Positions 29,401 through 30,158 of a stretch of 64,000 nt of DNA are shown one piece after another. The notes beneath the pieces were generated by a model. That model was given only the letters and a program-made list of their open reading frames with translations, did no database searches and had not been told where the DNA came from. Numbering within the stretch: position 1 is the stretch's first letter; every line of letters starts with the position of its first letter. Source of the stretch: Balanoglossus misakiensis (Eukaryota > Animalia > Hemichordata); assembly GCA_040954595.2 (NCBI GenBank), contig CM082583.2, forward strand, positions 3,977,060 to 4,041,059. Direction: 5' to 3'. A program made the position numbers and the translations under genes.

Positions 29401-30158
29401 ACTTAGTGACAAAGCTTGGGGATCTGTTGACCACGGGAACGATTACGGAAAATGAAGCTTCCGTCATCCAGGCCGACGTCACATCTGCCTTGAACAGTTT
29501 CCATGACGTTGGGTTGGTATATGGAGAAGTTGATGAAGACCACGTGATTGTTGAACATGACAATTGTGTAAGTGAGATATAGTTTTGGTTGGACATGCCC
29601 TTAAAAAACATCAAACTTAATTGTCACTTCTTTGGGTTACAATGGGCAAATTGCCGGAAATTCCTCCTCTACATTTCACCTAATGTTTCACTTCGCCCGG
29701 CCAAAATAATTTATACCTATACCTTGGTGAGTTAACTTTGTATAGGAAGTTTCATCATTTTGGTAACAATATTTTTTGACATACTGGTATGGACATCTTT
29801 AATGTTTTTTAATGAAAAAAAAAGAAGAAAAAAGTGCGCCATCAAATAAATATTCGAATTTTTAGACACGCCCCTTTACCCATATAAGGGAATATGTAAA
29901 TTAAGGGTGACCTTTTATGTACTAATTAGTTAACTTGTTCTCTTCGTCCAGGGAACTGTCACAGGTGCAAAGTTACTATTTCCACCAAGGCAAAGAAAAC
30001 CGATCGCCAGTGTTTGTGAGGGACGGCAAAATACTGGTGCCAATGATTCTGACGTCATTTTGTTACAAGCGTTAATTGAAAGGTTATCGACAGGACGGAG
30101 TGGCCATAGCGACATGTCGTTTGAAAATTCAGGTTTTCAGAACTCCTCGGAAGATTGA
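5183..30158 (+). CDS. GRL101: GRL101-like LDLa/LRR class A GPCR with giant mosaic ectodomain; 45 predicted exons, about 3,029 aa
   Basis: Exons were assembled with consistent phases; summed CDS is 9,090 nt and divisible by 3. Domain order: signal peptide, CTLD, unnamed domain, EGF, CTLD, FA58C, PAN, FA58C x3, CTLD, cbEGF, CUB x3, CTLD x2, LDLa x7, LRRNT/LRRs, 7TM, kinase-like tail. The symbol is a family-level assignment (GRL101-like); orthology is not shown. Confidence 0.88.
6433..6531. mobile_element. Right arm of a TTAA-AGGGAC MITE (family K1)
   Basis: Ends GGCAGCGAGAGAGAGAGACTTGTCCCTTTAA, the same as the right ends of 14511-14870 and 45001-45355. Confidence 0.8.
6572..7317 (+). CDS. GPCR C-type lectin domain 1 (exons 6572-6869, 7250-7317)
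   Basis: W..AK.RC...[23 protein letters not shown]...EHC, WNDFFC....YICQ. Confidence 0.92.
7732..8202 (+). CDS. GPCR single-exon unassigned extracellular domain (about 157 aa)
   Basis: Open phase 1-1 exon between CTLD1 and EGF: ...[37 protein letters not shown]...[11 protein letters not shown]...YPIRPIL. Confidence 0.75.
8569..9768 (+). CDS. GPCR EGF domain (8569-8691) and C-type lectin domain 2 (8940-9231, 9701-9768)
   Basis: [19 protein letters not shown]...[26 protein letters not shown]...[16 protein letters not shown]...DCACI...WEATHC...YFIC. Confidence 0.9.
10018..15171 (+). CDS. GPCR FA58C/discoidin domains x4 plus a PAN/apple domain (exons 10018-10391, 10875-11019, 11248-11496, 11612-11928, 12378-12522, 12900-13213, 13339-13483, 13852-14006, 14248-14484, 15027-15171)
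   Basis: Repeated FA58C motifs C..PLGMES..I...QI.ASS, WLQVD, VTGIQT.G, WVT.Y, IF.GN.D....V...RI.P.TW...I..R.E..GC. PAN exon: [22 protein letters not shown]....RRCNL. Confidence 0.92.
11061..11203. mobile_element. Left arm of a K1 MITE
   Basis: Starts TTAAAGGGACAAAGTCTCTCTCTCGCTGCC, as at 14511, 45001, 48610 and 58180. Confidence 0.85.
14063..14122. repeat. (CAAT)n microsatellite
   Basis: Imperfect CAAT tandem array in an intron. Confidence 0.9.
14511..14870. mobile_element. Full K1 MITE (long TIRs, TTAA-type flanks; Kolobok-like by its termini)
   Basis: TTAA-AGGGACAAAGTCTCTCTCTCGC ... GCGAGAGAGAGACTTTGTCCCT-CTAA; near-palindromic over its whole length. Superfamily inferred only from the TTAA flank and RR..YY ends. 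Confidence 0.85.
15624..16600 (+). CDS. GPCR divergent CTLD3 (15624-16037) and calcium-binding EGF (16475-16600)
   Basis: CTLD: ...FEWRDGTPV...HYC..LD....FVWKPYDC.......SICQK. cb[35 protein letters not shown]. Confidence 0.9.
16143..16354. mobile_element. TA-flanked MITE (Tc1/mariner-type ends)
   Basis: TA-CTGTAAAACGG ... CCGTTTTACAG-TA. Confidence 0.75.
16801..19048 (+). CDS. GPCR CUB domains x3 (16801-17029 + 17334-17551; 17948-18319; 18623-19048)
   Basis: [30 protein letters not shown]...[20 protein letters not shown].....GF. Confidence 0.92.
17043..17090. repeat. (GTGTG)n microsatellite
   Basis: Pentamer tandem array in an intron. Confidence 0.85.
17137..17290. mobile_element. Degenerate TA-CAGTC-type MITE fragment
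   Basis: TACAGTCGAAACTGTCTATAGTGGCCA start with internal repeated TATA(G/T)ACAGG/AGAGG units. Confidence 0.5.
19399..21583 (+). CDS. GPCR CTLD4 (19399-19608, 20012-20096, 20390-20535), linker (21024-21068) and degenerate CTLD5 (21263-21583)
   Basis: CTLD4: [15 protein letters not shown]...WTEAELDC...GGHLVSI...IYIGL.D...EGRYRWSDG...[10 protein letters not shown]...WHDVAC. CTLD5: [15 protein letters not shown]. Confidence 0.88.
19698..19810. mobile_element. Very short TIR element
   Basis: ACAGTCCTGTACACGGGT ... ACCCGTATACAGGACTGT. Confidence 0.6.
21837..24151 (+). CDS. GPCR LDL-receptor class A repeats x7 (21837-21962, 22289-22405, 22808-22927, 23037-23153, 23423-23572, 23702-23818, 24035-24151)
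   Basis: C.NG.CI.....CD...DC.D.SDE..C, one repeat per phase 1-1 exon. Repeat 5 is the atypical C.YD.D..G...GCRDVTHL..C type characteristic of GRL101-like receptors. Confidence 0.93.
25079..27400 (+). CDS. GPCR LRRNT and leucine-rich repeats (25079-25178, 25293-25409, 26005-26076, 26259-26330, 26742-26813, 27329-27400)
   Basis: [14 protein letters not shown] cap, then four 72-nt phase-2 exons that each encode one 24-aa LRR (e.g. [23 protein letters not shown]). Confidence 0.9.
27828..28915 (+). CDS. GPCR hinge and 7TM domain (RXFP/GRL101-type)
   Basis: Hinge FLFCC...[13 protein letters not shown], then [22 protein letters not shown]...[30 protein letters not shown]. Confidence 0.97.
29086..29275. 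mobile_element. TTAA-flanked MITE (a relative lies inverted at about 32600-32719)
   Basis: TTAA-AGGTATACGGT.ACC ... GGTGACCGTATACC-TTAA. Confidence 0.75.
29407..30158 (+). CDS. GPCR last two exons (29407-29567, 29952-30158): kinase-C-lobe-like cytoplasmic tail
   Basis: A phase-1 acceptor after a pyrimidine tract, a GTAAGT donor and a phase-0 acceptor give [66 protein letters not shown]...[19 protein letters not shown]...SED*. Confidence 0.75.

Follow-up and report, generated by a model that had tools for sequence, protein, structure and literature searches.

A kinase C-lobe fragment in the predicted tail of a GRL101-like receptor of Balanoglossus misakiensis

A survey of the LGRs exists, and in its available part the tail is set aside as poorly conserved (PMC4079206). 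Fusions of GPCRs and kinases are described from choanoflagellates, sponges, oomycetes and amoebozoans in a 2025 survey, whose available part reports no such fusion in animals beyond the sponges and states that none has been characterised (PMC12716839). Another related system is the KIND domain, which the available parts of two papers describe as a free, non-catalytic kinase C-lobe, with a formin peptide occupying the place of alphaG (PMC3415841, PMC11231147).

Here, we analysed a window, i.e., the whole stretch of 64,000 nucleotides from the hemichordate Balanoglossus misakiensis, which contains the gene of a GRL101-like receptor with a predicted tail resembling half a kinase. In the literature searched, with subscription journals and supplements outside its scope, no description of a kinase-like tail on GRL101/LGR receptors was found. 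Term look-ups in the available text of PMC4079206, PMC9545775, PMC11863921, PMC7357564, PMC11521371, PMC12716839 and 10.1101/2021.04.15.440029 gave no mention of such a tail. The receptor architecture is real and conserved and, as far as searched, apparently unpublished.

The receptor gene and its tail exons

A 43-exon open reading frame, with exons read by hand and checked by script, extends over 6572-30158 (+) and encodes 2,984 residues; splicing is predicted, all junctions are GT-AG and there is one stop. The encoded order is C-type lectin, an exon without assigned domain, EGF, C-type lectin, F5/8, PAN, three F5/8, lectin-like, EGF-like, three CUB-type, lectin, degenerate lectin-like, seven LDLa exons, an LRR cap with five LRR exons, hinge, 7TM and tail. 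The parts are located as follows.

6572..15171, + strand: N-terminal exons with a C-type lectin, a 154-residue exon, EGF, a C-type lectin and four F5/8 type C-like modules, with PAN after the first F5/8; two lectins, EGF, three F5/8 exons and PAN by Pfam, the fourth F5/8 by tblastn; in frame, all GT-AG
15624..21583, + strand: C-type lectin-like, EGF-like, three CUB-type, C-type lectin and a degenerate lectin-like exon; Pfam Lectin_C and CUB, tblastn; in frame
21837..24151, + strand: seven exons with LDL-receptor class A-type repeats; tblastn with GRL101-like homologues; in frame
25079..27400, + strand: six small exons, an LRR N-cap and five LRR exons, four of them of 72 bases each; five of the six picked up by a profile of the homologues' LRR region, the exon 25293-25409 read by eye; all in frame
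27828..28915, + strand: hinge, rhodopsin-type 7TM and basic helix-8/linker region; Pfam 7tm_1 E 2.8e-28, GRL101-like matches at <=50% identity, DRF and NPxxY intact
28916..28968, + strand: intron start, where read-through would stop at 28966-28968 (rival short form); donor strength rank 7 of 42
29407..29567, + strand: tail exon A, with putative kinase-like alphaD, alphaE (His 29502-29504), degenerate catalytic loop (YGE at the HRD position, 29520-29528) and strand beta7; kinase matches, profile score and residue table
29952..30158, + strand: tail exon B, the last coding exon, with putative beta8, no DFG, shortened activation segment, alphaF (Asp 30051-30053), a Ser-rich 19-residue end and the stop; weaker support than exon A

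A brittle-star protein gives collinear matches to positions 6625-28221. The first (signal-peptide) exon was not located; the search upstream gave five hydrophobic ATG candidates, to none of which the exon could be assigned. The 154-residue in-frame exon at 7732-8196 (+), between the first lectin and EGF, has no Pfam match at E <= 0.05. By eye, the in-frame exon at 21263-21583 (+) looks like a degenerate C-type lectin; it has no Pfam match at E <= 10. Two pairs of intron stretches also look alike by eye (about 11040-11190 and 14500-14660; 6480-6560 and 14810-14870), and are perhaps leftovers of a duplication of an F5/8 exon block. Downstream, an adjoining gene at 33675-39339 (+) contains a helical, coiled-coil-like open frame of 478 residues (34617-36053), several exons without assignment and a C-terminal Death domain (39007-39339, Pfam E 1.5e-10), while another gene at 57846-62223 (+) has exons rich in Gln and Pro.

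The 7TM is matched best, with 49-50% identity, by GRL101-like proteins from acorn worms and from molluscs, and in a quick 7TM tree, built from 62 rows hand-picked from 108, the row closest to the window is an acorn-worm protein. Judged by both features tested, the window gene is a GRL101-like (type C2) LGR: its 7TM is nearest to the type C LGRs, and multiple LDLa repeats are followed by LRRs and a hinge. The window 7TM lies outside an 11-row clade of LDLa-LRR-only receptors (SH-aLRT 99), and so outside the classical GRL101/LGR5 grouping, where the identity of the clade is taken from names and architecture and the Lymnaea sequence is absent from the set. The preliminary description, made from the letters of the DNA, had called the product an orphan lectin-GPCR; lectin modules are present, but with seven LDLa exons and the LRR exons directly before the 7TM it is not simply a lectin-GPCR but a type C2 LGR. 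Since the 7TM retains DRF and NPxxY, ordinary G-protein coupling is likely.

Two in-phase exons after the 7TM exon had also been proposed there, and both are found. The donor GTAAGT after 28915 and the AG before 29407, followed by the donor GTAAGT after 29567 and the AG before 29952, leave one frame with a single stop at 30156-30158, and the peptides quoted earlier are present in these exons. The exons were scored with a profile of alignment A1, which consists of 26 of 37 bilaterian tails, hand-chosen against redundancy, and contains no window sequence. Among the 1,662 six-frame stop-free pieces of the window, the piece with exon A scores 29.5 bits (E 5e-8) and the next best 10.0 bits; the score of exon A was reached by none of its 1,000 shuffles. 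Exon B alone gives 1.9 bits, a score as high being found in 9 of 1,000 shuffles, and an hhalign probability of 0.7%. Joining it to exon A raises the score from 29.4 to 33.1 bits, a value reached by one of 1,000 shuffled versions. Of the 58 in-phase AG candidates between 29600 and 33600 it comes out first, though narrowly (33.1 vs 31.7 bits).

Kinase homology and loss of the catalytic residues

Searched against Pfam on its own, each tail exon matched no family at E <= 10. Searched against PDB by phmmer, exon A gave 63 matches, and 59 of the best 60 are kinases, with MNK2 at the top (E 0.0096). An iterated profile, seeded with one acorn-worm tail and run on 100 homologues, collected 40 tails, the lowest member at 34 bits and the next sequence at 2 bits; it scores the window tail, which was not among its input, at 31 bits. 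The A1 profile matches 1,399 PDB sequences at E <= 1, of which the best 60 are all kinases, led by STK33 (E 2.3e-9). Run against 1.84 billion representatives, it gave 3,552 matches at E <= 0.001, and an HRDxKxxN-type motif is present in 72 of the 143 new proteins among the matches listed. A 7tm_1 match was obtained for 11 of 20 new proteins picked by hand, mostly for coverage of the whole profile in one stretch. Window exon A aligns to the A1 profile with a probability of 95.5%.

As a stand-in for the window tail, the closest homologous tail (sea cucumber P0072) was modelled with AlphaFold2 at a pLDDT of 82, giving two helices, the first short and the second long, followed by a hairpin and another long helix. 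Foldseek with this model returned no match at E <= 0.001; the best was 0.012, and nearly all were kinases. An unfiltered structure search gave kinases or pseudokinases, by title, in 49 of 50 among the matches listed, with a top Z of 10.6, and a second search was similar. The model aligns to TNNI3K with Z 9.2 and an rmsd of 1.9 over 87 residues, extending to alphaF. For a model so small and so largely helical, a Z of 8-11 is no more than moderate; the kinase-fold case for the tail is carried because the structure list is uniform and the sequence result independent. Kinase-fold similarity, which the preliminary description had set out beforehand as refutable, was thus found both by profile in PDB and on the model of the homologue. 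We conclude that the predicted tail is a fragment of a kinase C-lobe, consisting of alphaD, alphaE, catalytic loop and alphaF, as confirmed at the level of DNA and homology.

In the ESM Atlas the clusters obtained are kinase-like and none is of the GRL101-like tail family, and a word-index search with the tail profile added three proteins only, one of them a fungal multi-kinase. The unnamed protein P0208 (533 residues) matches the whole mini-lobe profile at residues 24-135 and has a complete kinase domain at 258-522 and no 7TM match.

The Gly-rich loop, beta3 Lys, HRD Asp and DFG Asp of active eukaryotic kinases are absent from the window tail. The residue table bears out the earlier reading of YGE for HRD, i.e., Glu at the catalytic Asp, and further gives Asp at the +2 Lys and His at the metal-binding Asn. 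At the DFG position, earlier read as LFP, there is no Asp in either register, but the alignment does not settle between LFP and FPP. The alphaF consensus quoted earlier holds only in part, as its Gly position is Gln in the window. A whole-domain pseudokinase with both lobes is not encoded either: from the alphaF Asp on there are 35 residues left, and from NPxxY to alphaD there are 59 residues, too few for the N-lobe whose absence had been noted. The activation segment is short, as first described: the spacing from catalytic loop to alphaF is 47 in the window and for the most part 36-54 across the family, whereas 42 ordinary kinase domains have a median of 61 and a minimum of 55.

In 51 tails, including that of the window, the catalytic position is Asp in four and the +2 Lys is present in two, His and Asp occur together in two, GxGxxG in none, and no tail has the complete catalytic set. 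The alphaE His is retained in 34 tails and the alphaF Asp/Asn in 48; the alphaE His and alphaF Asp belong to a structural component of the kinase according to the available part of PMC3415841. Judged from these residues, it is the folding core, not catalysis, that the putative lobe retains, and it cannot be an enzyme.

Distribution and history of the lobe

The preliminary description had called for a survey of GRL101-like relatives for the same tail. Among 108 receptors with a near-complete 7TM, 51 carry the domain, 34 are without it despite tails of at least 60 residues, and 23 are short-tailed, some of them probably cut-off gene models. Named carriers come from hemichordate, brittle star, starfish, sea urchin, sea cucumber, bivalve, limpet, nemertean, priapulid, centipede, mite, coral and anemone. 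The fusion of lobe and 7TM, presented earlier as an unusual architecture, is real, but it is not peculiar to the window gene and is an old and widespread family trait. Database models of the close relatives P0001, P0029, P0050, P0055, P0057 and P0066 end before or within the lobe, as though tail exons were missed, and the carrier counts are therefore probably lower bounds. The bilaterian lobe stayed hidden because it is mostly under the Pfam thresholds and lies on small exons; on coral members, PF07714 is flagged by precomputed annotation.

The coral and anemone members are longer: alphaD is preceded by 153-186 residues, and 61-64 follow the alphaF Asp. The match of the cnidarian tail profile to JAK2 spans beta3 and alphaC up to the catalytic loop, and the bilaterian and cnidarian profiles align with 96% probability over 98 columns, alphaF included. 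An AlphaFold2 model of the coral domain (seven sequences) has a pLDDT of 39; because of this low confidence, the cnidarian N-lobe elements rest on sequence. The search with the coral tail for a version with an intact kinase found none (seven proteins, all of stony corals, lengths 387-1234).

In the 62-row tree, a 50-row clade (SH-aLRT 95) with an unresolved base holds the window, the cnidarians and all carriers. The 11-row clade of LDLa-LRR-only receptors lies inside it and has no carrier, and on this tree at least six changes of carrier state are needed. Receptors with and without the lobe occur side by side in one centipede, in one brittle star and in one clam, and lobe-bearing and lobe-less receptors are therefore paralogous subfamilies.

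The simplest reading is that one ancient fusion was followed by trimming and losses, although a single origin is not proven, because the deep nodes of the tree are mostly unresolved. The fusion of an ancestral type C receptor with a kinase would predate the split between cnidarians and bilaterians. Corals and anemones would then have retained a longer dead domain with N-lobe elements, alphaF and two later helices, while most bilaterian members would have cut it down to alphaD-alphaE-beta7/8-alphaF, and the classical GRL101/LGR5 branch and some mollusc branches would be left without it.

Possible function and comparison with known systems

We suggest, with slightly more confidence than doubt, that the predicted spliced tail ends in a catalytically dead kinase C-lobe piece of about 100 residues that serves as a folded module on which a partner from the cytoplasm docks. 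A ligand would bind the LRR/LDLa ectodomain and the intact 7TM would couple to a G protein. The tethered lobe could neither bind ATP between two lobes nor transfer phosphate; the face that lies open because helices alphaG-alphaI are missing could instead be offered to a partner peptide, as Spire KIND does to formin, and docking of the partner may add a second output or set the location of the receptor. That the tail works like a KIND domain is an inference by analogy.

Conservation of the lobe differs between groups. Ecdysozoan lobes share 46% identity and their linkers 29%, the lobe being better conserved in 14 of 15 pairs, and in echinoids it is above the adjoining linker in six of six pairs. 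In bivalves the lobe has no such advantage over the linker (14 of 45 pairs). The 26 tails have a mean identity of 22% and no invariant column, and the net charge of the lobe ranges from -9 to +5 across the family; no single conserved docking surface is therefore evident. Variable residues and charge would speak against one universal partner and leave room for a cap in cis or a vestige.

It could be, though we consider it unlikely, that the lobe has no separate partner and acts in cis or on sister receptors, packing on helix 8, the intracellular face of the 7TM or another copy of the lobe, and gating the access of G protein, GRK or arrestin. A linker of 44-112 residues between NPxxY and alphaD in most bilaterian members, and of 49-62 in 31 of them, would suit this, and from the kinase fold a lobe without alphaH and alphaI would be expected to expose a hydrophobic face. 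In the window, a basic linker (14 K/R, 5 D/E) precedes an acidic lobe (15 D/E, 7 K/R). However, linker and lobe are not generally complementary in charge, and a basic helix 8 region is common among GPCRs anyway. A homodimer prediction for the sea-cucumber lobe, with a score of 0.18 and thus under the mark, gave no answer. Somewhat more doubtful is a reading of the lobe as a vestige, in slow decay since an ancestral fusion of receptor and kinase, that does little today and retains only its folding stability. This is what stepwise shortening from cnidarians to bilaterians, repeated changes of carrier state on the tree, the lack of invariant residues and the weak conservation in bivalve paralogues would suggest, but a lobe still recognisable in cnidarians, hemichordates, echinoderms, molluscs, nemerteans, priapulids and arthropods argues against decay, as do the difference between ecdysozoan lobes and linkers and the two dedicated exons that stay open in the window.

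A further possibility is that, although the family trait is real, transcripts of the window gene mostly run on past the 28915 donor as far as the stop at 28968, or leave out exon B; the lobe would then be absent or partial. Acceptor 29407 ranks 41 of 42 (weak) in splice-site strength within the gene by a leave-one-out matrix, exon B is weak alone, and P0001, the nearest database protein, is modelled with a tail of 74 residues and no lobe. We nevertheless find this improbable, as donor 28915 ranks 7 of 42, acceptor 29952 ranks 15 of 42 and is the first of 58 candidates, both exons are open and in phase, and the two halves of the lobe are contiguous in homologues. Hardly credible is a part in an active split kinase, with the N-lobe supplied in trans by another protein: two sea-cucumber paralogues retain His-x-Asp in the catalytic loop, but in the window the catalytic Asp is replaced by Glu, the Lys by Asp and the Asn by His, a DFG is absent, and even the coral and anemone members, with their N-lobe elements, read HNN or NNS at the HRD position.

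A bolder reading, which we rate as a little short of an even chance, goes further. There would be a large, unrecognised subfamily of rhodopsin-class GPCRs with a kinase-derived module since before the cnidarian-bilaterian split, and a living series of reduction from a long dead kinase to a mini-lobe of four elements. The latter might be a second, independent KIND-like docking domain and the smallest folded C-lobe remnant, giving lectin-studded receptors a G-protein-independent output. The family could serve as a natural series for the reduction of a kinase fold to an interaction module, and the lobe as a handle on orphan GRL101-like receptors.

Pfam contains a KIND model, and a scan of the 26 tails gave 13 families at E <= 1 with no KIND row; there is also no KIND chain among the 50 matches listed in either structure search with the homologue model, which does not exclude a likeness to KIND. 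Since the cnidarian relatives of the tail have N-lobe elements, its origin appears separate from that of KIND. Like the tail, the KIND domain of Spire, very-KIND, PTPN13 and FRMPD2 is a stand-alone C-lobe from alphaD without alphaG (PMC3415841, PMC11231147, available parts). However, KIND retains helices E, F, H and I (PMC3415841, available part), while the bilaterian tail ends about 16-35 residues past the alphaF Asp, without H and I.

With the GRL101/type C2 LGRs, i.e., Lymnaea GRL101 and arthropod LGR5 as described in the available parts of PMC4079206, PMC11863921 and 10.1101/2021.04.15.440029, the window receptor shares multiple LDLa repeats, LRRs, a hinge and a rhodopsin-type 7TM. It differs from them in about 2,000 extra residues of lectin, EGF, F5/8, PAN and CUB modules and in the kinase-derived tail. 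With the GPCR-TKL/K and GPCR-TK proteins, as far as the available part of PMC12716839 describes them, it has in common a 7TM with a C-terminal domain of protein-kinase fold. Those proteins, however, bear whole kinase domains on other 7TM types, whereas the window receptor is a rhodopsin-class LGR with a dead half, from a family of cnidarians and bilaterians in which the domain is mostly halved; the two are set apart by description. The GRL101-like tail family would thereby extend the GPCR-kinase design to cnidarians and several bilaterian phyla.
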